From: Desulfatiglandales bacterium
GTDB lineage: Bacteria > Desulfobacterota > DSM-4660 > Desulfatiglandales > Desulfatiglandaceae
Length of the DNA: 64,000 nucleotides
Direction of reading: 5' to 3'
Assembly (NCBI GenBank): GCA_963666345.1
Contig: OY762721.1
Coordinates: forward strand, 1,984,001 to 2,048,000
Each line of letters opens with the position of its first letter. Within the stretch, counting starts at the first letter, position 1. Below the pieces are notes generated by a model that did no database searches, had not been told where the DNA came from, and saw only the letters and a list, made by a program, of their open reading frames with translations. The translations under genes and the position numbers were made by a program. Below are positions 36,822 to 62,285 of the stretch, in pieces.

Positions 36822-36874
36822 CTTGAAAAACGGGCAGGTCAATATGTCACACCCGGTTTCTTTGCTCCGCTTGT

Positions 36875-36918: not shown

Positions 36919-36951
36919 GTATTAGACACCTTGGAACCTCGACCCGTTCAA

Positions 36952-41241: not shown

Positions 41242-41467
41242 ATTCTTATCAAGCCGCCGCCTTTTTTATCAGGCACTTATCTTATACCACCGGGCTTTAA
41301 ACGCACAAGCGCCGACGCCCGGATAAAACTCAAACACCAATTACTTCATCGACTGCTACGGCAAAAAAAACATAAAAGATCTTCCGCCCTTATGTTGCCT
41401 TTGCCCTTGGCCCCTAGACCCCTGGAATCCTTGGACCCTCGCATCTTTACATCCTGGCAACCCATTT

Positions 41468-42694: not shown

Positions 42695-42866
42695 TACTTA
42701 ATGCCTTCAGATCATACCGATTTTCGGGTATGCTTTTCTTGCCTATCACAGGACCGGCGGAAAACTGAGGGGTAAAAGAAAAAACAACCCCGAAGCCTGT
42801 GCTGCGGGGTTACAATACCGTGATTATAGTCCATGAATAAAATGCTGTCAAAAAATCATACTGATT

Positions 42867-43957
42867 AGGGGGACGCCCATGATTTTATGCTTTTCTCATT
42901 CCATAAGGGTTAAACGTTCGTCATTCGCAAGACCGGCACCTCGCTCTAGCGCACGACTTACCGCAGGCTGAACAAGGCCCAGCCTTCTCCCTACCTCTGT
43001 ACCGGACATTCCCAATTCCCTGACCGCCCAGTAGCATACAAGACTTCTTGCTCTAACCCTCTCCGGCTTTTTACTCGGCCTCAGAATTTCTTCGATATCT
43101 ATTTCCAATAATTCCGATACCCGCTCAATAACTTTATCAAAATCGTACCCCCGGCTTTTTAGCTCATACCGCCTCTCAAATTTTTCATCCTGCTCCCTCA
43201 GCACCGATTCCACAAACCCACTGTCACCAAGCATCCGCTCATCGCTCTTGAAGAGCACTCCCTGCCGACGCAGATCTTTCAACTCCTCCCAACCCCCTGA
43301 ACTTCTAATCAAACCTCCGCCTATTAAATCATTTCTCTTTCCCAGGGCAACGCCGGCCTCCACAAATCTTCTGTATTCCCTTCGAGCAAGAAATTCACGA
43401 TCACCAAACAACCGCAAGACATATTTGGTATCCTGCCACTCATTCTTATATTTTCCCAATATAAAACCGTGCCCGCAAAAACCGTATCGGTCCAGCTCAA
43501 TCATAGACGATACAATCTGTGCCCGCAGGGGATTCAGATGGATGTAACGGACAAGCTCCAAAAGATAGGAATCTTCCTGGCAAAGAATTGATTTATAACG
43601 ATTCTGAAACAGGTGCCCATGTCTTTTATATTTTTTATTAAAGGTTACAGCATATCCCGTAAGCAGTCTTCTCATTATTCCTGCAATAGGCAGATTGCCT
43701 GTTCTCAAAAGCAGATGAAAATGATTCGGCATTAACGCCCATGCAAAACAGGACGTCGCCGTAGCAGTCAGAATAGATCCCAGCCGGTCAATGAACCCTT
43801 TTCGGTCTGCCTGATCACGGAAGATCCTTCGATTTTCAATTCCTCGACATATGACATGGTGAAGAGCACCGGATGCATCTATACGGGCTTGACGGGGCAT
43901 GATTTTCCTCCTCAAAAAAAATTTTTAAGAAAAGCATAAAATCATGGGCGTCCCCCT
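42867..43957 (-). mobile_element. RAYT element bounded by perfect 30-bp inverted repeats
   Basis: 42867-42896 AGGGGGACGCCCATGATTTTATGCTTTTCT is the exact reverse complement of 43928-43957. Confidence 0.85.
42896..43900 (-). CDS. REP-associated tyrosine (Y1/HUH) transposase with C-terminal HTH
   Basis: MPRQAR...HHVICRG, LMPNHFHLL (HUH), GHLFQNRYKS, RYIHLNP; DnaA-C-like HTH tail. Confidence 0.93.
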   Translation of the reverse strand: MPRQARIDASGALHHVICRGIENRRIFRDQADRKGFIDRLGSILTATATSCFAWALMPNHFHLLLRTGNLPIAGIMRRLLTGYAVTFNKKYKRHGHLFQNRYKSILCQEDSYLLELVRYIHLNPLRAQIVSSMIELDRYGFCGHGFILGKYKNEWQDTKYVLRLFGDREFLARREYRRFVEAGVALGKRNDLIGGGLIRSSGGWEELKDLRRQGVLFKSDERMLGDSGFVESVLREQDEKFERRYELKSRGYDFDKVIERVSELLEIDIEEILRPSKKPERVRARSLVCYWAVRELGMSGTEVGRRLGLVQPAVSRALERGAGLANDERLTLME

Positions 43958-43997
43958 TTTTGGTTAAAAAAAGGGTTTTCAGTTTTTATCGGTGGTA

Positions 43998-44741
43998 TCA
44001 GTAGTTGGAGATGGTGATGGAGCCCTTTTTGTCCTTTTTTACCTTGAGGGTCTTCTTCCTGTACCTGAAAAGCTTGGTGCTTTTTCTCGACTCCGGGCTG
44101 AGGTCAACAACATATTTTCCGGGGACCGCAAAATTGAGGTTCTGTCCGTCCACTATCTGAAAGGTAGCCACCCCTATTACCTCACCCCGCATGTTTATGA
44201 CCGGGCTTCCGCTCGAGCCCTTTGAGATGGGTGCCGAGATCTGGAAAATGTCCTCTTTTTTATGAATCGTGCGAAGGGCGGATACTATGCCCTCCGTCAC
44301 AGTCTTTTCAAGGCCCATCGGGCTTCCCAGAACCATGATTTTCTCGGCTGCAAGCGGCAATTCATCGCTTATCTCCACCCACCTGACGGCCCCTTCAGGT
44401 ATGTCAACCTTCACCTTTATGAGATCGACGGCACGGTTTTCAGCCAGGGCCGATGAGATGGGGTATGTTTTCCCATCGCTCGTCCTCACCTCCGCCTTGT
44501 AGACATTCTTGAACACGTGATAATTGGTTATGAGATGGCCCTTGCGGTTAACGAAAAATCCGGTCGCGGACCCCGCGATCTTGTCCTCGGAATTGTAATT
44601 GATGATGGTGACAACCGCGGGCTGTATCCTTTGCACAAGCTCGGGCAGACTCACCTCGGCATGGGCCGGGGCAAAAGCAGCAAGAAGCAGAAGAGCGTTA
44701 AGGAGGACAAAAGATATTCTTTTTGAAAAAGACCGTTCCAT
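43998..44741 (-). CDS. Exported trypsin-like (S1C) serine protease without PDZ
   Basis: Signal peptide; ITNYHV, VDL and ISKGSSGSP triad motifs. Confidence 0.9.
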   Translation of the reverse strand: MERSFSKRISFVLLNALLLLAAFAPAHAEVSLPELVQRIQPAVVTIINYNSEDKIAGSATGFFVNRKGHLITNYHVFKNVYKAEVRTSDGKTYPISSALAENRAVDLIKVKVDIPEGAVRWVEISDELPLAAEKIMVLGSPMGLEKTVTEGIVSALRTIHKKEDIFQISAPISKGSSGSPVINMRGEVIGVATFQIVDGQNLNFAVPGKYVVDLSPESRKSTKLFRYRKKTLKVKKDKKGSITISNY

Positions 44742-45043
44742 ACCACAATTTCCCTATTGTTTGAAAAAGATGTTAAAATCTGAGACTCCCCTTCCCATTT
44801 GCTGAGAACCCGGCAGGCTCATGCCGCCTTCCCGGAAGATTACCCATTATCCGCTTATCTCATGAATCCCCATCTTTTTCAATGACAATAGACAGGGTTC
44901 TTTGCTTCGCTCAGTCCCACTGCTTCGGAGCGGGTTCCCGGTTTCAAGATAAAATGAGAAGGCCGATCTCCCACGAGCTGTGATATGATCACGCTCAAAC
45001 CTTTAACGCAGTCAAATTGCTGCAATAAGAAAGGAGACCGGCC

Positions 45044-46096
45044 ATGAGCAAACATATCACAATTGGGATGGATTTGGGAGACCGAAATCACATTGTTGTT
45101 GTATTGGACCCTGATGGTCAGGAACTCGGGTGCTTTGAATTGATCAATAAGAAAGTGTCATTGAAACGGTTTTTTGAGCGGTACTTTGGAGCGACGGTGG
45201 CTATTGAGGCAGGCACACACTCACCTTGGATCAGTCGTTTACTGGAGCAGATGGGTTTTCAGGTATACGTGGGTAATCCACGAAAGTTACGAATGATATG
45301 GGACAGTACCGACAAAAGCGATGAAAGAGACGCCAGGATGTTGGCGATGGTATGCCGTTTGGAGCCGAAGCTTCTGTGGCCGATACGGCATCGTGGTATG
45401 AAATCTCATAGCGATCTGGAGATAAGTAAGGCACGCAATATGCTGGTTCAGACTCGCACGAAGCTGATCAATCATGTACGCTCAGTGGTCAAAGGGGTTG
45501 GAGAGAGGTTACCAAGCTGCAGCGCAGCCAGTTTTTGCAGAAGGGTAGTTGATTTTCTGCCCGAAGAACTGCTTTGTGCGTTGATGCCGTTGATTGATAC
45601 CATCAGTGATGTTACGGGCAGGATCCGGGAGATAGACAAGCGGATCGATGAGTTGTCTTTGGAACAATATCCGGAGGCTCAGACACTGCAACAGATTAAT
45701 GGAGTCGGTCCGGTGACGGCTCTAGCCTATGTGTTAACGCTGGAAGACCCTGGTCGTTTTAAAAAAAGCCGTATGGTAGGAGCGTATCTGGGTCTGACGC
45801 CGCGTCGGGACCAGTCGGGGAATACGGACAAGCAGCTTAGAATCACCAAGGCGGGCAATGCGTATTTGCGCAAGTTGTTGGTAGGCTGTGCCCATTACAT
45901 CATCGGGCCGTTTGGCCCTGACAGCAATCTGAGGCGTCACGGAATGATTATTGCGGCCCGTGGAGGCAAAAACGCCCGCAAACGGGCAGCGGTGGCTGTG
46001 GCGCGCAAACTAGCTGTATTAATGCATCGGCTGTGGGTCAGTGGGCAGGCTTATGAACCGCTGTATGTTACAAGGGAAATCAAAAAGGCGGCATAG
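45044..46096 (+). CDS. IS110-family DEDD recombinase/transposase
   Basis: GMDLG, AIEAG, KSDERDA (DEDD); GVGPVTA and YLGLTPRRDQSG (catalytic Ser); AVARKL. Confidence 0.96.
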   Translation: MSKHITIGMDLGDRNHIVVVLDPDGQELGCFELINKKVSLKRFFERYFGATVAIEAGTHSPWISRLLEQMGFQVYVGNPRKLRMIWDSTDKSDERDARMLAMVCRLEPKLLWPIRHRGMKSHSDLEISKARNMLVQTRTKLINHVRSVVKGVGERLPSCSAASFCRRVVDFLPEELLCALMPLIDTISDVTGRIREIDKRIDELSLEQYPEAQTLQQINGVGPVTALAYVLTLEDPGRFKKSRMVGAYLGLTPRRDQSGNTDKQLRITKAGNAYLRKLLVGCAHYIIGPFGPDSNLRRHGMIIAARGGKNARKRAAVAVARKLAVLMHRLWVSGQAYEPLYVTREIKKAA

Positions 46097-46169
46097 AAAC
46101 AAGGCAGTATATTGTCATAAGGCAGTCAGGGTTATGTTGACAATTTCTTTAAAGAGTCTTTGACGTCTG

Positions 46170-46330
46170 GTCCGGGTGACTGCGGCCGAACCCTTGCACC
46201 GGCCAATGTACCGTTGGCCAAAAAAGAGTGCGAGTTCAAGATAGCAGCACCCACCGACTGATTTTACCATGCACCGGGCCAAAGGTAAGGCCCTAAAAAA
46301 GAGTGCGAATGGAAGTGTGACGGTCAGGGC
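46170..46330 (+). ncRNA. Predicted bridge/seek RNA with target- and donor-binding loops
   Basis: Two parallel stem-loop units with guides AACCCTT/GTTCAAG and ATTTTACCAT/ATGGAAG that match the target and circle junction. Transcript ends are not determined. Confidence 0.82.
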
Positions 46331-46365
46331 TCGAAAGGAAAAAGGATGTCCGTGAAGCGGACCTC

Positions 46366-46371
46366 TTGACT
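46366..46371 (+). promoter_or_regulatory. -35 box of the IS circle-junction promoter
   Basis: TTGACT lies 17 bp from TAAAAT (44950-44955) once the ends are joined over one core. Confidence 0.8.
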
Positions 46372-46387
46372 TGCCTTCTCATGGAAG

Positions 46388-46580
46388 GGTCCAAGGGGTC
46401 CAGGGGCCAGCTGAACCGCTGTCGAAGAAAAAGCATGTCCTGTCTCTATGCCCTCTGTGGTCTCTGTGAGAAACAAAAGGCATTTGGACTTCAGGCCCCA
46501 CTGATACTGAAACCGCTGATAGCCCTTTGCGAAGCAAAAAATCTTTTTATCCTTAGTTATCAAGCGAAGCGGGCGGCAAA
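46388..46580 (+). repeat. Octamer repeats + module D + shortened family A element
   Basis: Homologous to 60720-60910 (CTCTGTGGT.TCTGTGAGAAA...ACTTCAGGCCCCA...CTGAAACCGCTG). Confidence 0.8.
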
Positions 46581-46746
46581 TAAAACAGGGGCACTGTTAT
46601 TTGTTATTCGTTATTGGCGGGCAAGAAAAGCGAGACCGTGCCCCTCTATGTCCTGCCTTGTCCCTCCATATCGTTCCGATATTCATAGGTATTGCTACTG
46701 AAAGCCCATAGGTTATTTTCTATAAGAAACTTTGATGATTATTTTG

Positions 46747-46774
46747 AATAGTTTCTTTTATAAAAGAAACTATT
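46747..46774. promoter_or_regulatory. Perfect 28-bp palindrome overlapping a TTGACA -35 box
   Basis: AATAGTTTCTTTTATAAAAGAAACTATT; TTGACA at 46773-46778. Confidence 0.6.
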
Positions 46775-46829
46775 GACATTTTTGCTGATTATGATAAGTT
46801 TTTGCCATAACCAAAAGAGAAGCAAAAAG

Positions 46830-48041
46830 ATGGAAACTTTACTTCATAAAAGAAACTTATATATAGACAAGGTCCGCCCCTTTATTGACAAGCCGGTGAT
46901 CAAAGTGATCACAGGCATGCGCAGGACGGGAAAAAGCTGTTTACTCAAGCTGATCATCGAAGAGATGCAAATTTCTGAAAACAGCAAGCTGTACATAAAC
47001 AAAGAGTCGCTGGATTATGATTTCATTCAGGACTACGGTGAGCTTCACCGTCATGTAAAAAAATACTTTTCAGCCGTTGAGGGGAAAAAATATCTCTTTG
47101 TCGATGAAATACAGGAAATAGAGGGATGGGAAAAGGCCGTAACTTCTCTTTTCAATGCTGGAGACTACGATATTTACATCACCGGATCCAACGCGCATCT
47201 CCTTTCGTCCGAGATCGCGACACTGATCGCGGGCCGGTATATTGAAATACCTGTCTATTCTCTGAGTTTTGAAGAATTTTTAATGTTCCGGCAAAAAAAG
47301 CAGGAAAAAGGACATGAAGAATTCTTAACATACCTTTGGGCAGGCGGCTTTCCTGCAATTCATCATTTCGATTTTAACCGGGAGGTCGTATATCAGTATA
47401 TCAATTCAATCTACGATACCATCCTCTTAAAGGACGTGATAAGAAGAAACAACGTCAGGAATGTCACCCTTCTTGAAAACATCACCCGGTACCTGTTTCA
47501 GAATATAGGTAATATTTTTACCGCCAAGAAGGTGTCGGATTATCTTAAATCCCAGAAACTGAAAATCGGCGTCGATACGGTGCAGAAGTATATTTCATAC
47601 CTTATGTCGACTTTTGCCGTATATAAGGTTCCCCGGTTTGACATAAAAGGTAAACGCCTGCTGGAACTGCATGAAAAATATTACCTTGGAGACATAGCCC
47701 TTCGAAATGCGCTTTTCGGATATCGTGAGGGAGATATCTCAGGTCTGCTCGAAAATATTGTCTTCCTTGAACTCAAGCGAAGAGGCTACGATGTCCATAT
47801 AGGAAAATTGGGAGAACGGGAGATTGACTTTATCGCGGAAAAAGAGCACCGGAAAATTTATGTTCAGGTGGCCTATCTTCTGTCATCACAGGAAACCATT
47901 GAAAGGGAGTTTTCCGCTTTGAGATCTGTCAGGGACAATTATCAGAAATATGTTATCAGCATGGACTCCGTATTCGGAAAAGACATTGAAGGCATCCACC
48001 GGATTAATCTGGTTGATTTCCTGTTAAACCCCGACATATAG
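46830..48041 (+). CDS. AAA_14 + DUF4143 ATP-binding protein
   Basis: GMRRTGKS, FVDEIQ, ITGSN, GGFP, LENIVFLEL, EIDF...YVQV nuclease-like tail. Confidence 0.9.
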   Translation: METLLHKRNLYIDKVRPFIDKPVIKVITGMRRTGKSCLLKLIIEEMQISENSKLYINKESLDYDFIQDYGELHRHVKKYFSAVEGKKYLFVDEIQEIEGWEKAVTSLFNAGDYDIYITGSNAHLLSSEIATLIAGRYIEIPVYSLSFEEFLMFRQKKQEKGHEEFLTYLWAGGFPAIHHFDFNREVVYQYINSIYDTILLKDVIRRNNVRNVTLLENITRYLFQNIGNIFTAKKVSDYLKSQKLKIGVDTVQKYISYLMSTFAVYKVPRFDIKGKRLLELHEKYYLGDIALRNALFGYREGDISGLLENIVFLELKRRGYDVHIGKLGEREIDFIAEKEHRKIYVQVAYLLSSQETIEREFSALRSVRDNYQKYVISMDSVFGKDIEGIHRINLVDFLLNPDI

Positions 48042-48106
48042 GCGCTGTTTCATTGAAAAAACATCCGCCATCCCTGGCCGTCCACGTTTATCCTGCTGCA
48101 GTTGGC

Positions 48107-48136
48107 AGAAAAGCATAAAATCATGGGCGTCCCCCT
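48107..48136 (+). repeat. Solo copy of the RAYT terminal repeat (30/30)
   Basis: AGAAAAGCATAAAATCATGGGCGTCCCCCT. Confidence 0.92.
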
Positions 48137-48283
48137 TTTTACGGCACCGGAAGAGCAGAAAATATTTTCATCCTGTTTTGTCAAGCGAAGCGGGCAGGCT
48201 GTTCCGGAATAATCAAAACATCTGTATATCTCATTTCACATGTGTAAAAATAAGACTTTACAGAGACCAGGCGCGGGGATCAG

Positions 48284-49174
48284 ATGCGGGAATCAGCCTT
48301 TAAGAACAGATTAATGCTTCTCATCAAGGTAAGCAGGCCTATGTGGTGGGTCGTGCTTCCCGTCTCATACACGGTCGGCCTGGCCTTCGGCAGGCACGGC
48401 CTTAAAAGCGCCGATTTTCATTTCTCTTTTTTCATGGCGCTTCAACTCTTTTTTCTCTCCTTTCCTTTGTGCCTTTTTACATTCGGCCTTAACGACATCT
48501 ACGACTATCGCGCGGACATGAAGAACCCGAGGAAAATGGGAAAATCGCTTAAAAGCGCGCTCAATTTCGACGGCACGGTCTCGGATGAAAAGGATCAGGA
48601 TTTTCTAAAAAAAGCCGCCTGGTTTTGCGGAACCCTCTTCTTCCTGATCTCGCTCTCAGGCATGAACATCTTCAATATCTTTTACGCGTTTTCACTTCTG
48701 CTGTTGAGTTTTACCTATTCGATGCCCCCCTGGCGCCTTAAGACAAGACCCCCGCTTGATTCCATCCTAGGCGGCATTATAACTGTTATTGCGCCTTTCG
48801 GCATGGCCTTCAGCCTTGTTGACGACCCCTTCAGGATACCCCTTCAGATATATCTTTTTTCCATATGCGGCATGGGGGTCCACGCCTTTTCCACCACCAT
48901 GGATCATGAAGCGGATAAAAAGCTGGGGGAAAGGACCTTTGCCGTGGTATTCGGAATGAGATGGGCGGCATTTTTCCCTGCCGCGGCTTTTCTGATGACC
49001 TTTTTTTCCTTACACGGACTCCGCTACAAGATATATTTTGCACTCTGCATCTGTATCTTTACCTGGTTTATCTTCCGCCCTTCGGAAAAACAGGCAAGAA
49101 ATGCCCTCTTGATGATGCTGGCGGGAGCCGTTGTTGTCTCCATATACGGAGTTTATGAAATGTTCGCGATGTAG
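48284..49174 (+). CDS. UbiA-family prenyltransferase (resembles the lycopene-elongase-like subgroup)
   Basis: SRP, NDIYDYRAD.KNPRK, YSMPPWRLK.RP.LDS, D.EADKKLG.RTFAVVFG. Confidence 0.85.
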   Translation: MRESAFKNRLMLLIKVSRPMWWVVLPVSYTVGLAFGRHGLKSADFHFSFFMALQLFFLSFPLCLFTFGLNDIYDYRADMKNPRKMGKSLKSALNFDGTVSDEKDQDFLKKAAWFCGTLFFLISLSGMNIFNIFYAFSLLLLSFTYSMPPWRLKTRPPLDSILGGIITVIAPFGMAFSLVDDPFRIPLQIYLFSICGMGVHAFSTTMDHEADKKLGERTFAVVFGMRWAAFFPAAAFLMTFFSLHGLRYKIYFALCICIFTWFIFRPSEKQARNALLMMLAGAVVVSIYGVYEMFAM

Positions 49175-49422
49175 GGGGGTAAAAGGACAGGGTCCGGGAA
49201 GCCCAGGGGTCAAGGGTTCCAGGATGGCGATAGGACAAAGGTTCCTATCTCGCCTTTCCCGCTTTTCCCGCCTCGGCGTAAGGCCTTTAAAAGAGGTTGT
49301 CAACAGCCTTGAAATGCCTGATAATGCCGGAATCGCAGGAAAAAAATCGCCCTGGAGCTGATCATGGAGCATCTATGTAAGATTTTCAATGCAAGATTTT
49401 TCTCTTTAAAGGACGGTGTTCT

Positions 49423-49452
49423 AAAAAAGCATAAAATCATGGTCGTCCCCCT
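49423..49452 (+). repeat. Solo copy of the RAYT terminal repeat (28/30)
   Basis: AAAAAAGCATAAAATCATGGTCGTCCCCCT. Confidence 0.88.
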
Positions 49453-49482
49453 CGGGTGGGCATGGAGGTTTCTTAAAGGGAT

Positions 49483-50343
49483 ATGCTGCCAAGGATTAAT
49501 ATCGGAGTAATGAGCACGTACAACCTATGTTACCTGCTCGGGATTCTCATCGGCTGGGTGATGTTCGTTGCCGCCGAAGAGGATATATATAATTGTGAGA
49601 GCCGACATATTAATATGAAAACCGTTTTTCTCGCCTCAATCGCCTATCTTGTGGTGGTGATCGTATGCATTCAGGGGGCAAACTACTTTCATTTTATTTT
49701 TGATCATATCCCGGCCGCCGCAAGAAAAAAACTCACATGGAAGGATATCATCTTCCCCGATCTTATGAGGACGGTTAAGGTGCTTTACGGAGCGATTTTT
49801 TTCTACCCGGTCGCGATCTTCATCGTCTCAAAGGTGCTCAAAAAGAAAGACTTTCTCGACTACCTGAGCAGAAAGGGGTTTATCCTCTTTTTCATACTGG
49901 GATTTGCCAGGCTTGGATGCTTCGCAAACGGATGCTGCTACGGGATCCGCTCCGACCTGTTCGGGATAAGATTTCCAATGGGCTCGGCCGTCTCTGGCGA
50001 GCATATGAGAAGAGGGCTTACCTACGGGTTCGTGCCGCCCCCTTCCCTTCCGGTAATACCCACCCAGATCATTTCGGCGGCCGTTATTTTCGCGCTCTCT
50101 TTTTTCTGCTGGAGATCCTACAGAAAAGAAAAAAACAGAACGCTTTTTTTCAATTATGTTCTCTATTACGCGATATTCAGGTTTCTCATAGAGTTCATAA
50201 GGGATGACATAGACAGGGCCTACTGGTTAGGGATATCGGCTTCACAGTGGATATCCATACTCATTATGATATGCTTTCTGGTATATTATGGGGTTAAAAA
50301 GAGAGGGTCCGAGGGGTCGAGGGGCCAAGTGAAAACACCTTGA
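49483..50343 (+). CDS. Divergent prolipoprotein diacylglyceryl transferase (Lgt)-family protein
   Basis: ARLGCFANGCCYG, PTQ, YAIFRFLIEFIRDD, SASQWIS. Confidence 0.8.
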   Translation: MLPRINIGVMSTYNLCYLLGILIGWVMFVAAEEDIYNCESRHINMKTVFLASIAYLVVVIVCIQGANYFHFIFDHIPAAARKKLTWKDIIFPDLMRTVKVLYGAIFFYPVAIFIVSKVLKKKDFLDYLSRKGFILFFILGFARLGCFANGCCYGIRSDLFGIRFPMGSAVSGEHMRRGLTYGFVPPPSLPVIPTQIISAAVIFALSFFCWRSYRKEKNRTLFFNYVLYYAIFRFLIEFIRDDIDRAYWLGISASQWISILIMICFLVYYGVKKRGSEGSRGQVKTP

Positions 50344-50465
50344 AATAAACTCCGGAGTTTATCATTCAACTTTTTGTGTGGCATGCAGAATAAGAGGATC
50401 CGGGGTTTTAAAGGTCAGGTGTTGAAAAAGGACCAAACCTTAACCTTTGCGAAGCAAAAGGTTAA
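50338..50465 (+). repeat. Module B (inverted copy of 34598-34692) plus truncated family A hairpin
   Basis: About 95 bp near-identical, including the TAAACTCCGGAGTTT palindrome. Confidence 0.85.
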
Positions 50466-50483
50466 ACGTCATTATAAAACAAG

Positions 50484-51134
50484 ATGATTCCTGACTTTCT
50501 CAAGATAAAAAAACACAGATGCATCCTGAATTACTATCTCATATGGCTTCCGTTTATCATGGTCTACCAGGTGACCAACCGGTTTCACTTCATTGAACCG
50601 AGGCTGCTTCCCATGTCACGGCTGGATGAGGCCATACCCTTTCTGCCATGGACCATTCCGGTCTATGTCAGCTATCTTGTCTATACATTTGTGGTGATTA
50701 CGAGAAGCAGGGATGATAATGAGGTAAGGGAGATCTTCGTTTTCACCCATATCCAGCTTGTGATAGCGGCCCTGTTTTTCATCTTTTTCCCGGTGACCTA
50801 TCCAAGGGAAGGGTTTTACTACCCGGGAAGCATGACATCCATGTTCAACGGTTTCTGGGTGATGTTCGACGAACCCAACAACTGTTTCCCGAGCCTGCAC
50901 ACCATGCTCTGCCTGACCGCCATAAGATACAGCATGGACAAGCCCGGCAAATGGTTATTCTGCGCGTGGGGGGCTCTCATTATCGCAACCACCCTGACAT
51001 GCAAACAACATTACGTAATTGATATCGCCGGGGCGTTCGCGGCCTACTGGCTGTCTTTAAAGATATTTTCTCTCTACTGCTCCCGGACCCCCGGGAAAAG
51101 CCCTGACTGTCCTCCTTCCCAGAGCAGCCAGTAA
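50484..51134 (+). CDS. PAP2 superfamily (AUR1/IPC-synthase-like) membrane protein
   Basis: NCFPSLH and KQHYVID motifs; multiple TM helices. Confidence 0.85.
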   Translation: MIPDFLKIKKHRCILNYYLIWLPFIMVYQVTNRFHFIEPRLLPMSRLDEAIPFLPWTIPVYVSYLVYTFVVITRSRDDNEVREIFVFTHIQLVIAALFFIFFPVTYPREGFYYPGSMTSMFNGFWVMFDEPNNCFPSLHTMLCLTAIRYSMDKPGKWLFCAWGALIIATTLTCKQHYVIDIAGAFAAYWLSLKIFSLYCSRTPGKSPDCPPSQSSQ

Positions 51135-54100: not shown

Positions 54101-54613
54101 CTGCATGGTCTGGCTGCCGTCACCCCCTGCAAGGGTCAGGTTTACCGTCACATAGGAAAGCTCCGAAATCAGGTCCCCCAAGGACCATGATCCTGCTCCC
54201 CCTGACTGGGTCTGAAAGTCGAGGGTAAAGGACTGGACCACGTCCACAAGATCATGAGGGCCGCTGCTGCCGCTGCTGTCGGTTACGGTCAGGGTCAGTG
54301 GAGTGTCCACAGTCCCGGACCAGGCATAGGTCTCAGTTATATTTTCCCCGTTGCTGAGCCTGTCCAGGGTTATGGAGTTGGCACCGGCCGCTGTTATGAG
54401 AGTAAGATTTGCGATCGATCTCCTGAGCCTTGTCAACGGCAGCACGTTTTTCTGGCCCATCTCCGTCGTGTTTTTTGTAAAGATAAACGCCTTTGACGCC
54501 TGCACAATGCCAAGACCCGCCACAGAGGCAAGCACACCCACCAGCAGAAGTACCGCGATCAATTCTATAAGGGAAAATCCTTTGTTTCTGCCGCCCTTTT
54601 TATTAAAAGTCAT
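51074..54613 (-). CDS. 1179-aa prepilin-type fusion: PilW/GspJ-like + CFI-box-CTERM-like + PilX/GspK-like + large beta-rich domain
   Basis: N-terminal KG|FSLIEL; CFIKSR...LYNLISP at residue 202; internal RNTTG|AILIGIII...QAYYLAESGL at residue 315. Confidence 0.8.
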   Translation of the reverse strand: MTFNKKGGRNKGFSLIELIAVLLLVGVLASVAGLGIVQASKAFIFTKNTTEMGQKNVLPLTRLRRSIANLTLITAAGANSITLDRLSNGENITETYAWSGTVDTPLTLTVTDSSGSSGPHDLVDVVQSFTLDFQTQSGGAGSWSLGDLISELSYVTVNLTLAGGDGSQTMQFSDRVVPRNTFIPSTGAPGASAGTTSSEFSCFIKSRIYKDGGPAIIDLYREARRKMLEAGTIGGKMVSLYNLISPRLCLLADKIPGLLPFLKVMFLPVTGLLFLTFHFPWAFMAFAVVAWLIFRLVAKKEKKVKALRFIRNTTGAILIGIIITIVIMAVLSAAMVGMFSSSTVGTVSPQISQQAYYLAESGLAYAAQRYHKHDGNDTAFVNDLNLGGSIPLGNDSFALDLDGYWFDNNSSGSSGTITVSPFGSFPDNVTAGLSGYIQIPVSGGTSVERFTNTIWSGGNLRFALNGSVSYTAGDVFPAFLASAQTVTASVIGEDPDLANDVLTPTDIAHLAIFPEVNGIINFTDAAGNDQLLVYRLKKDGKLRGLQYPKGVSFSFSGVSVNSNTPVVLGKHAVISSTGIAGTGSLQSTQTVKMHQPLSTVELYKKVEGGIDFNDAGDAGKISSKLGTHAIEGGALKVTSTEQTYSYTNYTQDGHTGPVLHSESLAVVNWDHHSFETNFLKQLWEKSGNKLTYDLQAKVKFTETEDDTDSAPINHPGCYMPGLSFRIRSPKAGNFGQATYYGLSFLRGLQGLEEHEESSGSCGGSTYSFTENDDITDNFFNDHSDTTNASEIQACPDSAFTPTNWNDDPPLDGIPYIVLWQKDVSTNADGDPVNTGGCGGGADYSPWEWLAYSPLVDAVRVRIYHYKIGSTNLFYEGANPDPGITPYYQNEYWSWKLKDRYNILSTTTLEGVEILGSPGPSNVIIRDPANYVHNAVDPANPTDPGDPVNTFDGTTTCPVGFIRVPTISNEERKSDYNYKIYIKPWATILVRVYEMEGNLDCDTGTGDAEGNERVNAITAFITDPDGKAGTLGYPKDDVREAVPRDTIRWTYEGDYFSQIVWRGLRNSGGPVFDGETGYTSHTVQNPEASGCGSASADIKLVEKGKDNEGDNVIVYTGTYTTADYFQLANTYDVSEFGLHTLGINGESTDPDNQEVAYFDDFYWLLWEGGQSGLFPGVREQ

Positions 54614-54635
54614 AATATTACCCTGTCTTAAAGTT

Positions 54636-54787
54636 GAGGAATTCGTAAAAAGGCATAATTGAGACGGCAAAGTAAAAAGCTCCAAATGCAAGGCTTGCGA
54701 ATCTTGAGGAATGAGGCGTACTTACAGTACGCCGCAATGACGAAAGATGAAGCATAACGCAGCAGTTGGACTTTTTACAAAGCCGTC
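54636..54787 (+). mobile_element. 152-bp MITE (family C), copy 1
   Basis: Imperfect TIRs (GA...CGTAAAAAG / CTTTTTAC...TC); 6-bp TSD AAAGTT. Confidence 0.88.
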
Positions 54788-54791
54788 AAAG

Positions 54792-55214
54792 TTACTCTAT
54801 CAAAAGAAAAGATGTTGTCAGGCCATCCTCCCCGGAGGTCGGAGTCACCGTCACTTTTAGTATGCCTTCAGAGCCGCCGTCTGCTATCTCGTTGAAGCCG
54901 GAGTCATACGCGATATACTGTGTTGAAACAGTGGCTCTCGAGTTGTCATACTTATTGCCGTCTATATCAGCTTTCATGCCTGAAAGGGCACCGGAAGACA
55001 TGTGCATGTAATCGGCCATATAGTCTGCTATTATGTTGTCCGCCACCTGGTTCCTCTCATAGAACCTGGCCATTGTTATGGCAGGAAAGGCGCTTTTCTG
55101 AAGGGCGGTCCCTGTGAAGGAGATGAGCATGGACCCCATTATTGCCGCGATTATGATAGCAATTATCACTTCAATAAGGGTAAAGCCGCTATTGTCTTTT
55201 CTCTTTTTTATCAT
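54792..55214 (-). CDS. Prepilin-type protein (PilV/GspI-like minor pilin)
   Basis: SG|FTLIEVIIAI class III signal. Confidence 0.85.
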   Translation of the reverse strand: MIKKRKDNSGFTLIEVIIAIIIAAIMGSMLISFTGTALQKSAFPAITMARFYERNQVADNIIADYMADYMHMSSGALSGMKADIDGNKYDNSRATVSTQYIAYDSGFNEIADGGSEGILKVTVTPTSGEDGLTTSFLLIE

Positions 55215-55696
55215 GGTATAAATCCTGTTACGGGAGTAACTGTAATTGATTCACTTATAAAGGATAAAGACCCGGACATCGGAGTTCCGCAGTTGGGATC
55301 CGTGTAAGGCGCCCCCCACCAGTCAAACGCGATTGTGTCATTGCATGAAAGATTTGACTGCAGGGTTACGACATCTGAATCAGCACCGGGAAGAGCAACC
55401 TTTTCATTCGCTGAAAAAGTGTTGTCATCGTTGTCATTTCTGTAAAGGGAATAGGTTGACCCGACAAACTTGATTCCCCACCGCTTGGCGCTGTCGGCCA
55501 TGGCCCTGCTCTGGGCATACCTGAGATGGCTTTTTACCAGTTCAATGTCCGCGATCTTATCCGCGTTTATTGTATTGGCCCTGCTTATTACAATTGCTGA
55601 AACGATTCCTATAACAATCAGGGTCACAACCACCTCAATTATAGTAAATCCTGAGCAATTCATGCTTCCGCCGGAACCTGATCTTTTTACAACCAT
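55211..55696 (-). CDS. Prepilin-type protein (FimT/GspH-like minor pilin)
   Basis: SG|FTIIEVVVTL; LRYAQSRAM; IAFDWWGAP. Confidence 0.85.
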   Translation of the reverse strand: MVVKRSGSGGSMNCSGFTIIEVVVTLIVIGIVSAIVISRANTINADKIADIELVKSHLRYAQSRAMADSAKRWGIKFVGSTYSLYRNDNDDNTFSANEKVALPGADSDVVTLQSNLSCNDTIAFDWWGAPYTDPNCGTPMSGSLSFISESITVTPVTGFIP

Positions 55697-55745
55697 TTTT
55701 TTAATTACCCCTTCTCTTTCAGTTCTTCAGACCTACCCAATTCTG

Positions 55746-56345
55746 TTAACTCTGGAAGCTGATGTTGGAGGAGTACCTGTCCATCACATAAGTGAGCAGG
55801 CCTCCTATTATTATGCTTCCGATCGTAAGAGGCAGCAGGGCAAGGGCCACAATCGGAATTTTCAGATCCATCTGAAGAAATATGTTATTCATGATGATTG
55901 CACCCACATATATAAGAATGCCGAGCCTGGCAGATCTTACCGACACGGGCCGGCCCGATATAAACGATATGCCGAGAAGAGCAAAGCCTACGGCAACGCC
56001 AAAAGCGACCTCCGGCTGATAGAGCAGCCAGACTGCGTTATAACCGGCGCTGGTGATCGTTTCCATGCTCAATAAAAACATGAGTCCCACCACAAGATAA
56101 AAAAGGCTTACAAGCATAAAGAAGAAACCGCACTGCCTGCCGGTGATGCCTTCAGGAAATAGACTCAGCCCCTTTATTGCACGAGGCTGTATAAGAAAGT
56201 CCCGGAGCCTTTTAAGCGCCCCGTACCGGGACGGACAAGTTCCCATCCGGGCCATGACCAGATCGGTAAAATCATCAGGTGCGGCAACCCGGGGAGTCTT
56301 TTCAAGGATATTTATGATGTGCTGAAATTTTTCTTGTTTTTTCAA
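55746..56345 (-). CDS. Putative anti-sigma membrane protein
   Basis: TTG start; APDDFTDLVMARM motif followed by about 4 TM helices; downstream of an ECF sigma. Confidence 0.65.
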   Translation of the reverse strand: MKKQEKFQHIINILEKTPRVAAPDDFTDLVMARMGTCPSRYGALKRLRDFLIQPRAIKGLSLFPEGITGRQCGFFFMLVSLFYLVVGLMFLLSMETITSAGYNAVWLLYQPEVAFGVAVGFALLGISFISGRPVSVRSARLGILIYVGAIIMNNIFLQMDLKIPIVALALLPLTIGSIIIGGLLTYVMDRYSSNISFQS

Positions 56346-56396
56346 GTCGTTCTCGCCTTCTAATAACGAATAACAAATAACCGTGTCCTCATTTTC

Positions 56397-56500
56397 TTTG
56401 CCGCCCGCTTCGCTTGACAAAACAGGATCAAAACAAATGTAAAGATTTTTTACTCTGCCGACATTGGCAGAGCAAAAGCTTCGTTTGCTTCGCAAAAGGG
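56397..56500 (-). repeat. Family A element
   Basis: Reverse-complement of the consensus; flanked by AATAAC(A/G) heptamers. Confidence 0.85.
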
Positions 56501-56652
56501 CATAGCATCTCTATTTTGCAATGTTTGAATACTCTCACAACCAATAACAAATAACCATACTCTTGCTTTTTCAGTTTCACCCCTCGACCCCTTGAAACCG
56601 GGAACCCTTATTTATATATACCCCCCAGCATGGAAAAAGTCACAGGCCCTTT

Positions 56653-57195
56653 TTACTTTTCGTTCATCATCCTGTTGAGCCCTTCAAGCCCCCTGTAGAC
56701 CCGCATTTTGGCCGAGCTTACAGAGCAGGCCGTGATTTCGGCAATCTCATCAAATGAGAGATCCTGGTAGAACCTCAGGACAACCGCCTCTTTGAGCTTG
56801 ACAGGCAGTCTGTCAAGACAACTGGATATCCGAAGCACCTCCTCCTGTTGGATCATGTCCTGTTCCGGATCAGGGGGGCTGTTTTGCGAATGATAATCGG
56901 CCCCCCGCATCCGGTTATTCACATAATTCTTCTTTTTCTTCAGATGATTGCGGATGAGATTAAGCCCTATGGTGTAAAGCCAGGTGAAAAACCTCCTTTT
57001 CCGGTCAAAACGCCCCAGATTTTCAAATGCCTTTACAAAGGTCTCCTGCGCCAGATCGCCTGCCTCCTCGTACGACCCGGTCATGCGAAAGGCAAGGTTG
57101 AAAACAGGGGCATTGTATTTGTGGACAAGTGCGGCATAGGAGTCCCTGTCTCCCGCCATAATCCTTTCAATTATGGAATGATCTTCTTCTGACAT
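56653..57195 (-). CDS. ECF RNA polymerase sigma factor
   Basis: AGDLAQETFVKAF, FFTWLYTI, LSFDEIAEI...SAKMRVYRG. Confidence 0.95.
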   Translation of the reverse strand: MSEEDHSIIERIMAGDRDSYAALVHKYNAPVFNLAFRMTGSYEEAGDLAQETFVKAFENLGRFDRKRRFFTWLYTIGLNLIRNHLKKKKNYVNNRMRGADYHSQNSPPDPEQDMIQQEEVLRISSCLDRLPVKLKEAVVLRFYQDLSFDEIAEITACSVSSAKMRVYRGLEGLNRMMNEK

Positions 57196-57532
57196 TACGT
57201 GCCCTGAGGGTCATGGCGCGCCGTGCGCCGGTAATAGAGGTTCGAGATCATTATTTAAGACGGGGTCTCAAAACCGGTAGAAATGCTCCTGGATCAGGCT
57301 CTTTGCTGAATGTGCTAAAATTATCAATGGCTTTGCAAATTTTCAACGAAATTTTTGGATCATCTCCCGATTAGTTGGTGTTAAACAGGGCCGAATAAAG
57401 GAATTCTTCTTATTTAAGCGGCTGAGAACTCGTAGGATTCTTCGCCCTCGCTTAGCTCAGCTCAGTCCCACTGTTTCGCAGCGGGTTCCCAGTCTCAAGG
57501 ATTCCAGTGCTCCATTGAAACGGCGGATAAAA

Positions 57533-57690
57533 CCGCTAAAGCATTACAAAGATTTAAAGCTGTTGCAGAGATCCTGCGAATGTTTTTCAGGTATATAGAA
57601 TAAATGAAAAATTCTCAAATAACATGGGGTACACAGAGATCACAAAATTGTTAAAAATGCCGATAAAATCCTTAGAAAACAAACCCTTGA
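57533..57690 (+). pseudogene. Internally deleted four-helix-bundle gene relic
   Basis: Fragments LKHYKDLKLLQRS, VYRINEKF and LLKMPIKSLENKPL. Confidence 0.6.
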
Positions 57691-57801
57691 TCGGTTGACT
57701 CATCATCATGAAATCATTGAAACCTGTAGGACGAAACATGCGGCTTCACAGATAAAAAAAGAAGAAATCTTCAACACCTGGTGACATTTTATGAATGGGA
57801 A

Positions 57802-59049
57802 CTAAAAACCACCAAAAATAGGATCAATTAGACACAAGTAATAGTTGAACGAGGCAACTATACCAGTGAGTATTTCCGCAAAAAAAGATAACCCGGAAAA
57901 TAGCAATATAACTGCAGTAAAAGACTTTTTAAAAGTAGATTTAATACCAAGCTCGATTCTTCGAATAGTTTCGGTAGTTAGAATCGAAAACAGCAATATT
58001 GAAGGTGGCGTAATTAGGATTATATAGCGAACAACTTTGGAATAGCCTAAGTAGGCTAATATGACATGAAAAATTATAACCACAAATATCCACATGAAAA
58101 GACACGCACCTTGGCGTCTTAAGCTTTTATTTTTCCATAAAAATATATAAAGAAAAATTGAGGGGATAAAAGTACACATAATTCTTGGCAACAACGATAA
58201 ATATATCCAATGAGATCGAATTACAGTCAGATATTTAACATAATTATTGCTTTCAATAAGGCTATCGCATGGCTTGCCCGCCCAGCCGGGAAAAGGTGTG
58301 CCTACTTTAATCCACTGATAAACCTCCCAGGGGGTTTGCACTAGAATTGCTGGTACAATTAAATATGGAACAAATCGCAGGAATTTCTTCTTATCTGTAC
58401 AAAGAAGCCAGGCCAGAGCGGTAATGCCTGGAAAAATCAGGAACGCTGTTAATTTTATTAGGCTGGCATATCCCAAAAGCAGGCCGGAAATAATAGCCAG
58501 CAAAGCACTTTCACGCTTTACAGCCCAGATAAAAACAGCAGAGGCAAGAGTGGAAAAACCCAATAACGGGCCATCCAACCAGTAATATATTGTGACGTGA
58601 GCCATGATTGGACTAAAGGCAGAGAGCCCGGCAACCAGAAGTAATCCGATGCTTGATGACGCCAAGCCGAACAGACGCGCCAGAAGAATCATACTACAAA
58701 AGAAAAGGACATAGCTAAAGAGTTGTGCAAGAGGAAAACCCCAAATTCCAATAACATTATAAAATAACCAAAATAATGCTATGCCTCCTGGTGGATGAAA
58801 AAAAAGCGGTTTGTCATATCCATTTCTATCGATTATGTCTAGTTCCAGCAGAGGCGTCCCCTGGAGGGTATAACCATTTCCGCTATCCAACTGTTTAACC
58901 AATTCAATATAAATGATTTCATCGATCTCATTGTGTGCCACTACAAAAACTACTAGACGTAAACAAAAGCCCAGAAAAAACAAGACCATCACAATTTTCC
59001 ATCGTGAAATAAATGATCTAAGGCTAGAAAGAAAATTGATTTCAGTCAT
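57802..59049 (-). CDS. GT-C (ArnT/PMT, family 39-like) glycosyltransferase
   Basis: IDE..Y, FHPPG, WLD, ASLIK motifs; many TM helices; visibly AT-richer than neighbours. Confidence 0.8.
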   Translation of the reverse strand: MTEINFLSSLRSFISRWKIVMVLFFLGFCLRLVVFVVAHNEIDEIIYIELVKQLDSGNGYTLQGTPLLELDIIDRNGYDKPLFFHPPGGIALFWLFYNVIGIWGFPLAQLFSYVLFFCSMILLARLFGLASSSIGLLLVAGLSAFSPIMAHVTIYYWLDGPLLGFSTLASAVFIWAVKRESALLAIISGLLLGYASLIKLTAFLIFPGITALAWLLCTDKKKFLRFVPYLIVPAILVQTPWEVYQWIKVGTPFPGWAGKPCDSLIESNNYVKYLTVIRSHWIYLSLLPRIMCTFIPSIFLYIFLWKNKSLRRQGACLFMWIFVVIIFHVILAYLGYSKVVRYIILITPPSILLFSILTTETIRRIELGIKSTFKKSFTAVILLFSGLSFFAEILTGIVASFNYYLCLIDPIFGGF

Positions 59050-59644
59050 CTGTGTGCATTATCCCAATCATTATGTTGACATCATCATGATCCTGGAAGT
59101 GAATCCCATTTATTTTACAGCCTGATGGACACAAGCTATAATCCCCAAAAATGTATAAACAAGAAAAAGCATCAGACAGCTTCGGCAAATGGGCGAGGTA
59201 AATCGCAGTAAACCTCACCTGATGTTTTACCGTCAAGAGAAGAATGGCATCTGATGACAATATTGTTCTTAATCCACTTGCTAAACCCCAAGCAAACACA
59301 GAGACTTTCCCGTATCAAATGAATGCAGCAGATGTAATGATATTTTAATATCCGCCGTATATTGGTTTATAAATATAAGAAAAAGATCCATTTACAACAA
59401 TTTGGAGTTCTATTAATATAATATTGTTAATAAATTAGTATCAATCCAGGAATGGACTATTTCCGGATGTTGCTTTCAGCCCCGCCACATTCACGGCGGG
59501 CAAGCATCAGCCATCGGCAAGTAACCAATAACCTCTCGCCCCGCTATGTCTGTTTTGTCAAACGAAGCGGGAGGTAAAAGAAAGGGGTCAAGGAGCCGAG
59601 GGGCCTAGGGTTCAAGTGATCCGCCACAGAACAGGCGGATAAAA

Positions 59645-59890
59645 ATACTTAAAAATTATAGGAGGTTAAACATCCGGCAGAAATCTCATGCACCTTGGTT
59701 GCATATCTATAAAGAAACGAAACGTTTTTTATGCATGAGCGATACGAGTTTATCTTCAAGATCATAAGATCCGAGGTATCCGTACCATGGAATACCGCAT
59801 GAGCATATGTGGGATTCCTCTATATTGCATATGGTTCAGTCACTGAACTGGAAACCGTGAGCCATGATATTGGGTCAGTCGGGTTATCCT
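59645..59890 (+). pseudogene. Decayed four-helix-bundle (23S rRNA IVP/S23-like) gene between inverted octamer arrays
   Basis: LKNYRRLNIRQKSH...IYKETKRF / HERYE...IIRSEVSVPWNTA* / FLYIAYGSVTELET. Confidence 0.72.
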
Positions 59891-59976
59891 CGAACCCTTG
59901 AATCCTGGAACCCTTGGACCCTCTTCGACAACTAAGTTGGAGAAAAAGCATAATATTAAAATTCGGAGAAGCGATA

Positions 59977-60741
59977 GTGTTTAAAGACAAAAAGGTCATC
60001 GTGGTCATGCCGGCCTACAATGCTGAAAAGACCCTGCGGAAAACGCACAAAGAGGTCCTGGATCAGCAGATAGTGGATCTGATCATACTGGTGGATGACG
60101 GAAGCTCCGACAGGACGGTAAAGGTTGCTGAAACCCTGCCTGATACGATGGTGTTCGTTCATGAAAAAAACAGGGGGTACGGGGCAAACCAGAAGAGCTG
60201 CTACCGTCTTGCGCTTGAGCAGGGTGCGGATATAGTAGTAATGGTGCATCCCGACTACCAGTACACCCCTAAGCTGATCCCGGCAATGGCCTCTTTAATC
60301 GGAAACGGGCTTTACCATTGCGTGCTCGGCTCAAGGGTCCTTGGCGGTCAGGCCCTGAAAGGAGGCATGCCCTGGTGGAAATACCTTTCAAACAGGGTCC
60401 TTACCATGGCTGAAAACCTCCTGACCGGGGCAAAGCTGTCCGAATATCACACAGGCTACAGGGCCTTTTCAAGAAAGCTCCTCGAGCAGTTGCCGCTTGA
60501 GCAGAATTCAGATGATTTTGTGTTTGACAACCAGATGCTTGCCCAGATCATCCGGCTCGGTCACACCATAGGAGAGATAAGCTGCCCCGCCAAATACTTT
60601 GAAGACGCCTCTTCCATAAACCTTTCACGCAGCATCAGGTACGGCATGGGCTGCCTGGGGGTGGCCTTGAGCTTTTTTGCGGCCCGGGTGGGACTCACAA
60701 AAGAGAGAAGGTTAAAAAAAAGGGTCCCAGGAGCCAAGTGA
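59977..60741 (+). CDS. GT2 glycosyltransferase (polyprenyl-phosphate sugar synthase-like)
   Basis: VMPAYN, VDDGSSD, NRGYG, HPDYQY, EYHTGYRAF; GTG start. Confidence 0.9.
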   Translation: MFKDKKVIVVMPAYNAEKTLRKTHKEVLDQQIVDLIILVDDGSSDRTVKVAETLPDTMVFVHEKNRGYGANQKSCYRLALEQGADIVVMVHPDYQYTPKLIPAMASLIGNGLYHCVLGSRVLGGQALKGGMPWWKYLSNRVLTMAENLLTGAKLSEYHTGYRAFSRKLLEQLPLEQNSDDFVFDNQMLAQIIRLGHTIGEISCPAKYFEDASSINLSRSIRYGMGCLGVALSFFAARVGLTKERRLKKRVPGAK

Positions 60742-60938
60742 ACCACGAAGAAACAGCATGTTTTTTCTCCGTGTTCTCTGTGGTTTCTGTGAGAAATAAA
60801 AGGCATTTGAACTTCAGGCCCCAACTGGTGAAACTGAAACCGCTGTTCAACTTTTGGGAAGCAAACGAAGCTTTTGATTTGCCAATGTCGGGAGAGTAAA
60901 AATATTTTTGACAACAGGTTTTAAGGGTACGTTACAGG

Positions 60939-60968
60939 AGAAACGCATAAAATCATGGGCGTCCCCCT
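60939..60968 (+). repeat. Solo copy of the RAYT terminal repeat (29/30)
   Basis: AGAAACGCATAAAATCATGGGCGTCCCCCT. Confidence 0.9.
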
Positions 60969-60991
60969 TTTTTGACTGGCAACGCAGTCGG

Positions 60992-62133: not shown

Positions 62134-62285
62134 GATGGACTCGTAACAAGTCATAATTGAGACGGCAAAGTAAAAAGTCCCAAATGCAAGGCCTGCGAAT
62201 CTTGAGGAATGAGGCGTACGTACAGTACGTCGCAATGACGAAAGATGAAGCATAACGCAGCAGTTGGACTTTTTACGAAGCCGTC
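62134..62285 (+). mobile_element. 152-bp MITE (family C), copy 2
   Basis: Same length and highly similar to 54636-54787; flanks CATATC/CATATT. Confidence 0.88.

Follow-up and report, generated by a model that had tools for sequence, protein, structure and literature searches.

The names TIRtron and TIRYT designate genes resembling those of REP-associated tyrosine transposases (RAYTs) that have long terminal inverted repeats (TIRs) on either side instead of repetitive extragenic palindromic (REP) sequences (Di Nocera, De Gregorio and Rocco, 2013, BMC Genomics 14:522, PMC3733652). Many of these TIRs, most but not all, carry the motif GGGGWSAS, and they can overlap the 5' or the 3' end of the gene; in some genomes, further TIR copies, single, dimeric or grouped, make up families of moderate abundance (PMC3733652). 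In the classification of Quentin et al. (2018, BMC Genomics 19:475, PMC6006769), 20 of 26 TIRYTs were placed in TnpAREP subclass 2.1, a subclass that these authors equate with TIRYT and within which subgroup 2.1.2 has a C-terminal extension with a helix-turn-helix (HTH) like that of Bac_DnaA_C; they found no REP-like repeats near subclass 2.1 genes. A role for TnpAREP in diversifying prochlorosin genes was proposed in a preprint and later softened. Here we describe a locus of this kind in a 64-kb stretch of contig OY762721.1 from a Desulfatiglandales bacterium (the window, meaning the whole stretch analysed). The locus is a TIRtron with solo TIR copies, and its anatomy is not new, because such elements were already described by Di Nocera et al. 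(2013).

The likeness to TIRtrons consists of a RAYT-like Y1 gene placed between long inverted repeats that are not REP hairpins, of a TIR that starts with a G-run close to GGGGWSAS and overlaps the gene end, and of extra TIR copies that occur as singles and dimers. The locus differs in that its 30-mer is specific to it and its relatives, with a host clade of Desulfobacterales type, and in that two features presented below, one TIR sequence recurring across genomes and a flank bias towards A-runs, are not described in the consulted parts of Di Nocera et al. (2013). With subgroup 2.1.2 it shares a long Y1 protein carrying a Bac_DnaA_C-like C-terminal extension, whereas the repeat flanking the window gene forms a small dispersed family. 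Similar to RAYTs and their REPs or REPINs, a Y1 gene lies between inverted short repeats that are also scattered in intergenic DNA, and inverted doublets fold as long single-stranded DNA (ssDNA) hairpins (L011, one of the foreign loci described below), both arms of a pair carrying the same derived changes. In contrast to them, the window unit is not palindromic, lacks a GTAG head and has few copies, and the protein is about twice as long, has an HTH and scores under the NCBIfam RAYT cutoff. The IS200/IS605 elements (IS608, ISDra2) have the same Y1/HUH fold and provide the best structural matches, so that ssDNA chemistry would be expected; those elements have subterminal direct hairpins and often tnpB, neither of which is found at the window element, and they have no TIRs.

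The 30-mer AGGGGGACGCCCATGATTTTATGCTTTTCT has five matches in the window (at most 3 mismatches, both strands), and no match was obtained in any of 100 dinucleotide-preserving shuffles. These copies and the gene that two of them enclose are as follows.

42867-42896, plus strand: left TIR, 0 mismatches, G-end outward; arm complementary to 43928-43957
42896-43900, minus strand: TIRYT gene, encoding a 334-aa Y1/HUH tyrosine transposase-like protein (Pfam, NCBIfam, alignment, Foldseek)
43901-43927, minus strand: 27-nt leader from the right TIR to the ATG, with a GGAGGA ribosome-binding site (sequence reading)
43928-43957, minus strand: right TIR, 0 mismatches, G-end outward, followed by TTTT
48107-48136, minus strand: solo copy, 30/30, between the AAA_14/DUF4143 gene and UbiA
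49423-49452, minus strand: solo copy, 28/30, with T at position 25 and two private changes, between UbiA and the Lgt-like gene
60939-60968, minus strand: solo copy, 29/30 relative to the local TIRs, between two convergent glycosyltransferase genes

The original prediction had described perfect, non-palindromic 30-bp TIRs touching the stop codon of a RAYT, and its anatomical part held throughout. The arms around the TIRYT gene are exactly 30 nt each and 100% complementary, and repeat and gene have one base in common, as the left TIR's last base doubles as the first base of the complemented TGA stop codon. The mismatch search returned 0, 2 and 1 differences for the copies at 48107, 49423 and 60939, in agreement with the 30/30, 28/30 and 29/30 given before. 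Coordinates and gene calls likewise agree that all three solo copies are intergenic, oriented as the right end, and each located 3' of a plus-strand gene. The copy at 48107 lies 65 bp past the AAA_14/DUF4143 gene. That at 49423 is 248 bp past UbiA and 31 bp ahead of the start of the Lgt-like gene, and that at 60939 is 197 bp past the GT2 gene and 23 bp from the stop codon of the convergent minus-strand gene. The interval said to hold a single gene (48137-49422) does contain one Pfam-supported gene, UbiA. All five copies fall within 18 kb, and the absence of any copy from the 42 kb to the left was borne out, since neither a scan of the window at up to 8 mismatches nor an nhmmer profile built from all copies recovered a further one. 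Real copies scored 29.3-40.9 bits with this profile, and the next best match in the window 7.4 bits.

A hairpin or REP nature of the 30-mer was rejected on folding, as the unit is non-palindromic and ssDNA folding of eight 50-nt windows around copies yielded z-scores of -0.31 to +1.18; the GTAG head is also absent from it. No Rfam family reached its gathering threshold anywhere in the window. Promoter and terminator consensus sites were not centred on any of the solo copies and were not enriched in the window (terminator-like sites 26 vs 22.3 expected, promoter-like sites 33 vs 26.5 expected). A promoter for the TIRYT gene inside the right TIR was considered and dropped, as no convincing -35 element could be recognised by eye. 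Separately, a perfect 12/12 sigma-70 consensus (TTGACA, 17 nt, TATAAT) is located at 42851..42823 on the minus strand, 15 bp outside the left TIR; it points at the MFS transporter gene at 41468-42694, and the TIRtron lies immediately upstream of this consensus.

Classification of the gene product as a RAYT-like Y1/HUH protein, also part of the original prediction, was confirmed by a Y1_Tnp match (Pfam, E 5e-10, residues 14-121), by invariant HUH and tyrosine motifs and by fold matches to TnpA and TnpAREP. Translation starts at the ATG located 3' of GGAGGA, and this start is fixed by M1-P2-R3, which is invariant in 20/20 aligned homologues (the window protein and 19 sequences chosen across the list of the 119 best homologues). 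H60-F61-H62 (the HUH motif) and R118-Y119-x-H121-L122-N123-P124 are equally invariant in all 20. Y119 is the candidate catalytic tyrosine, judging from its position where the Y1_Tnp match ends and from its surroundings, which we take to correspond to the RAYT motif. Strong conservation is also seen in the stretch that links the Y1 domain to the HTH (residues 125-250, codons within 43151-43528): G194-G195-G196, R199, G202-G203-W204 and D220-E221-R222 are invariant in 20/20. This stretch has no Pfam match and is modelled with low confidence.

The AlphaFold2 model has a mean confidence (pLDDT) of 61, with values of about 65-79 in the N-terminal domain and 81-94 in the C-terminal domain. With Foldseek, the N-terminal part matched the TnpA proteins of ISDra2, IS608 and IS200 and the E. 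coli TnpAREP (4er8), and the C-terminal part matched DnaA domain IV (3pvp_B, TMt 0.71; 1j1v_A, TMt 0.72; root-mean-square deviation 1.8-2.0). The predicted architecture is thus an N-terminal IS200-like domain, a middle region and a C-terminal HTH resembling DnaA domain IV. Pfam matches, predicted fold and motifs fit membership in TnpAREP subclass 2.1. Searching the PDB by sequence, phmmer returned only a designed repeat protein (E = 0.005) and a 20-sequence profile returned nothing.

The family is large: E was <=0.001 for every one of the 8,000 scored candidates, and the best 119 were 60-72% identical and about 335 aa long and, where named, transposases from Deltaproteobacteria or Desulfobacterales metagenome-assembled genomes (MAGs). 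A search without a word index gave 34,494, 15,646 and 1,332 cluster representatives (50% identity) at E<=0.001, 1e-10 and 1e-30, respectively. Short contigs (the longest under 1.6 kb for 38 of 120 listed homologues) were not used as a sign of multiple copies, as there was no baseline for them. In a plasmid collection, there was no DNA match to the TIRtron and all protein matches were below 40% identity; one of these homologues, from a Legionella adelaidensis plasmid (27.5% identity), is framed by 26-nt TIRs that are 92% complementary, and its downstream TIR overlaps the stop codon.

The repeat is also present in other genomes. The 22-nt core of the 30-mer (one free position) was searched for as an exact match on both strands of 596 Gb of genome contigs, giving 12 matches at 11 loci in 9 MAGs, compared with about 0.27 expected by chance (computed from the 21 specified bases). 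The MAGs are assigned to Desulfobacterales or Desulfobacteraceae, to "Deltaproteobacteria", to Thermodesulfobacteriota and, in one case, to an Omnitrophota bin. Looser matching within the 11 foreign loci raised the number of copies to 15. Over these and the five window copies, the eight positions left free by the search are conserved, with A at position 1 (18/20 copies), C at 24 (18), T at 26 (18), T at 27 (20), T at 28 (19), C at 29 (17) and T at 30 (17). Across the foreign loci, the copies have unrelated flanks, and the 30-bp unit is therefore a discrete module. Identity at 30/30 positions is seen for seven copies in six genomes, namely the window copy at 60939 and six copies from five MAGs.

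Most foreign loci (7/11) have a lone copy within +/-4 kb. Two have two direct, co-oriented copies (L002 and L009), a longer array being found in none, and two have inverted pairs, spaced by 278 bp at L006 and by 96 bp at L011. The G-ends point outward in both inverted pairs, as they do in the TIRtron. As a single strand, the L011 pair has a folding energy of -43.1 kcal/mol (z = -7.7). The spacers of the pairs (L006 1236-1573, L011 3868-4023) contain no transposase remnant, and both pairs appear analogous to REPINs or miniature inverted-repeat transposable elements. The outer copy at L006 supplies the stop codon of a P-type ATPase open reading frame (ORF).

TIRYT-like coding sequence was found less than 2 kb from a copy at three of the 11 foreign loci. 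L002 contains the N-terminal half of a TIRYT (65% identical) and L008 contains TIRYT fragments. At L009, the C-terminal half of a second TIRYT (38% identical) is truncated at about residue 153-160, exactly where a 30-mer copy begins. This second TIRYT has its own, different repeat, which touches its stop codon and is headed by GGGGGACG, also found at the head of the window TIR; the head TAATGGGGGACG occurs three times in the locus. These features of L009 fall at 3411-4029 and 5760-5806. The two 30-mer copies of L009 have a further ~17 nt in common on the T-end side, and a periodicity AGGATTTA, related to the 8-nt tandem repeats of the window described below, follows 30-mer copies in this locus (4040-4070).

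Neighbouring genes were assigned with Pfam for 50 of the 94 foreign-locus ORFs (the longest non-nested ones). Housekeeping neighbours include NifU/NifS, PurH, a P-type ATPase and a hybrid-cluster protein; accessory neighbours include PIN, YafQ-like, HepT/MNT and ORF6N proteins, an integrase and BrxC/D-like proteins. Comparison of the window with the 11 foreign loci by blastn and tblastx revealed no synteny apart from the repeat and the TIRYT.

Sequence variation among the copies carries hints of local copying. Position 25 is T in both TIRs and in the solo copies at 48107 and 49423, whereas it is T in 0/15 and G in 13/15 foreign copies; this argues for recent common descent of the four window copies within the source genome. 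The copy at 60939 has the common foreign form, G, at this position. The copy at 48107 and its TTTT flank are identical to the right TIR over 34 nt (direct repeat D9, 100%) and it must therefore be very young. That both TIRtron ends have the same derived base would follow if the arms pair with or template each other; at L011, both arms likewise carry a derived A at position 24. A preference for A-runs beside the G-end is a second hint: AA lies directly 5' of the G-end in 9/20 copies, where the background frequency is 0.086 (p = 1.7e-5 by the binomial test, with copies that are not all independent).

Orientation is less telling. Among solo copies with a supported gene within 600 bp, the T-end faces a gene 3' end in 6/7 (the three window copies, L007, L008 and L010, with L001 as the exception; seven other solo copies, not assessable or with the nearest gene farther away than 600 bp, fall outside this count), which is not significant (one-sided p = 0.06) and includes three window copies that are not independent. 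Co-orientation of the three solo copies has a chance probability between 1/4 (with each other) and 1/8 (with the right end as well), and it is not significant either. The cumulative GC skew falls steadily across the window, with 25/32 of the 2-kb bins negative, and the region thus lies in one replichore. Strand bias is known for IS200/IS605 elements (see PMC5027513), and such a bias within one replichore would be another ordinary reason for copies to point the same way. Polarity and co-orientation would also both result if insertion favoured gene ends on their T-tract side.

We assign a probability of about 0.8 to the interpretation that the locus is a TIRtron, that is, a subclass 2.1 TIRYT between 30-bp TIRs with outward G-ends, together with three solo copies of a small dispersed family recognised by the TIRYT. 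Its mode of action is inferred from anatomy, domains and repeat distribution. The TIRYT would recognise the 30-bp unit, probably by means of its HTH on duplex DNA; alternatively, its target may be the stem formed by two inverted copies in ssDNA. The Y1 domain would nick at or beside the unit, and nicking would spread or rearrange copies locally, as RAYTs are thought to spread REP or REPIN sequences. Solo copies would insert next to A/T runs, with only intergenic insertions being tolerated, and Y1 enzymes may have a strand bias within one replichore. Insertion at A/T runs, intergenic tolerance and strand bias would together explain the positions and orientation of the solo copies, so that gene capture is not needed.

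A number of observations weigh against this interpretation. To our knowledge, there is no mechanism by which a Y1 enzyme copies a single non-hairpin 30-mer. In the consulted literature on TIRYTs, TIRtrons and TnpAREP, we found no biochemical study of a TIRYT. The TIR head GGGGACGC agrees with GGGGWSAS at 7/8 positions. The Bac_DnaA_C match (residues 255-308) scores 28 bits, under the gathering score of 31.5, and NCBIfam REP_Tyr_transpos, the RAYT model (NF047646), scores 58.6 bits, under its cutoff of 80. The AlphaFold2 model is poor overall, and at residues 106-208, which include Y119, its pLDDT is <50. Identity across genomes at positions 2-23 of the repeat was imposed by the search pattern, and the count of five copies refers to the 64-kb window. 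At L002, no 30-mer copy lies within 170 bp upstream of the TIRYT start, and no other genome among those examined has an intact TIRYT framed by the same 30-mer. With no second intact example, the link between protein and repeat rests on one complete and three partial examples. That the window has no decayed copies is compatible with recent spread or with selection on the sequence.

Among the alternatives, the one that survives best, albeit unlikely, is that no enzyme acts on the solo copies, which would be inert leftovers of former TIRtrons or inverted pairs with the partner deleted, located simply wherever such DNA is tolerated. REP singlets are viewed as relics in the REPIN literature, which counts for this possibility, as do the intergenic stretches in which the solo copies lie, crowded with other repeats (D2, D4, D5, D12 and D13 modules adjoin them), and the two private substitutions of the copy at 49423. 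Against it, there is no TIRYT remnant next to any window solo copy (tblastn, E<=1e-5) and there are no degenerate partner copies, nothing scoring between 7.4 and 29 bits. The youth of the copy at 48107, identical to the right TIR over its full 34 nt, and the 30/30 identity of seven copies in six genomes also argue against inert remnants.

Still less probable, and quite doubtful, is the explanation put forward in the original prediction, an integron-like array for gene capture or shuffling. In such an array, the 30-mer would be a dedicated recombination site, the solo copies would mark 3' ends in a cassette array spanning 43958-60968, and the TIRYT would move or shuffle the segments on the T-end side, as a Y1/HUH analogue of cassette capture. 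The likeness to integrons, co-oriented short repeats after genes beside a recombinase-type gene, is superficial. Capture is supported by the co-orientation of the solo copies 3' of plus-strand genes and by the T-end polarity in 6/7 solo copies, which mirrors the junction at the TIRYT's own stop codon. The first interval, 4.18 kb, lies between 34-nt perfect direct repeats, and the direct copies of L009 are 1.8 kb apart among toxin-antitoxin genes, beside a shortened TIRYT. In addition, UbiA looks like a rare gene, as its 37 homologues comprise one at 99% identity, from a 5-kb contig, and otherwise sequences of at most 52% identity.

Gene content of the region speaks against capture. From a list of 75 ORFs, the 19 longest that do not overlap, in 41.5-64 kb, were scanned, and they include no integrase and no Phage_integrase domain; there is thus no IntI tyrosine recombinase in this set, and the repeat has no folded, attC-like structure. 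The intervals are long (4.1, 1.3 and 11.5 kb), and two of the three have genes on both strands and contain whole operons. The first (43958-48106) comprises a minus-strand trypsin-like peptidase gene, an IS110 transposase gene, a small ORF and the AAA_14/DUF4143 ATPase gene. The last (49453-60938) holds on its plus strand the Lgt-like gene, a PAP2 gene and, at the end, the GT2 gene. Its minus strand encodes proteins with N-terminal methylation motifs, one of 1,205 aa and two small ones (a pseudopilin-like cluster), a 249-aa protein that lacks a Pfam match, an ECF sigma factor and a PMT_2-like protein, and it also has an 85-aa ORF. Elsewhere, 7/11 foreign loci are single-copy, several of them among NifU/NifS, PurH and P-type ATPase genes, and TIRYT placement varies, being divergent in the window vs co-directional and downstream in L002 and L009. 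The polarity counted in its favour has p = 0.06 with non-independent window copies, and the copy at 60939 is a different sequence variant from the local TIRs. The region between the solo copies is not a cassette array, and the claim of an integron-like system is not supported. As for the GGGG-starting RAYT subgroups with cassettes mentioned in the same prediction, the subgroups exist as TIRYT/TIRtron elements (Di Nocera et al., 2013); no TIRYT-bounded cassette array was found in the consulted literature on TIRYTs and Y1 transposases with TIRs.

The least likely alternative by our estimate, that the 30-mer is a selected cis element (a protein-binding or 3'-end RNA site) and the TIRYT a domesticated DNA-binding nuclease, would suit the conservation of free positions across 10 genomes with sharp boundaries and no decayed copies, the tendency of the unit to lie at gene 3' ends with fixed polarity, the confidently predicted DnaA-like HTH fold (pLDDT 81-94) and the view that RAYTs in general are domesticated (Bertels, 2017), but it is weakened by the lack of an Rfam match, of a stable fold and of enriched terminator-like or promoter-like sites, by the very few copies per genome in heterogeneous contexts, and by copies that cut off a TIRYT (L009) or overrun the end of a P-type ATPase gene (L006), which resembles insertion, not design.

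Several other features of the window are recorded here as observations in their own right. Modular intergenic repeats crowd it and outnumber the TIR family; they include the D5, D12 and D13 modules and adjoin each solo TIR copy. A unit of ~88 nt, a GC-rich hairpin followed by an A/T run, occurs at 4146-4233, 10807-10894, 16256-16343 and 60822-60909, and in inverted orientation at 34534-34623 and 56447-56499. Tandem repeats with an 8-nt period, GGACCCTC/GAATCCTT (AGGRTTYR on the other strand), are present in many intergenic regions (34429-34836, 41397-41455, 10751-10786, 49189-49216, 50304-50331 and 59583-59618). A paralogous "empty site" was sought by aligning 46400-46780 with 60720-61000 and two other repeat-rich regions, and no clean empty site was obtained.

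The IS110-family transposase gene (45044-46096, plus strand; NCBIfam transpos_IS110, 203 bits) is located just downstream of a 69-nt repeat (44884-44952) that is also present, with no transposase, at 36855-36923 and 57435-57503, and inverted at 34827-34871; the IS110 element may have targeted a resident intergenic repeat. UbiA, a prenyltransferase-family gene with TIR copies on either side, is followed in a row by the Lgt-like and PAP2 genes (48284-51134, plus strand), and the three may belong to a membrane-lipid operon. Each copy of a 152-nt direct repeat (54636-54787 and 62134-62285, 93% identity) takes in the first codons of a minus-strand gene together with the region upstream, the two genes being those of the 1,205-aa N_methyl protein and of a GT2-GtrA glycosyltransferase; this suggests a shared promoter or leader. 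Finally, an ABC transporter gene (37311-39457, minus strand) is split over two overlapping ORFs, with ABC_membrane profile positions 36-189 in one and positions 190-273 plus ABC_tran in the next, indicative of a frameshift, of a pseudogene or of a sequencing error.

TIRYTs form a very large protein family that has barely been studied. Although the locus alone reveals no new kind of system, it bears on a mechanistic question, namely how non-hairpin inverted repeats are handled by a Y1 nuclease of the ssDNA type that is joined to a duplex-binding HTH resembling that of DnaA. For this question it offers a clean set of substrates: the gene is intact and its 30-bp ends are perfect, one solo copy is very young, local copying is marked by a sequence variant, and the same 30-bp unit recurs in other genomes.

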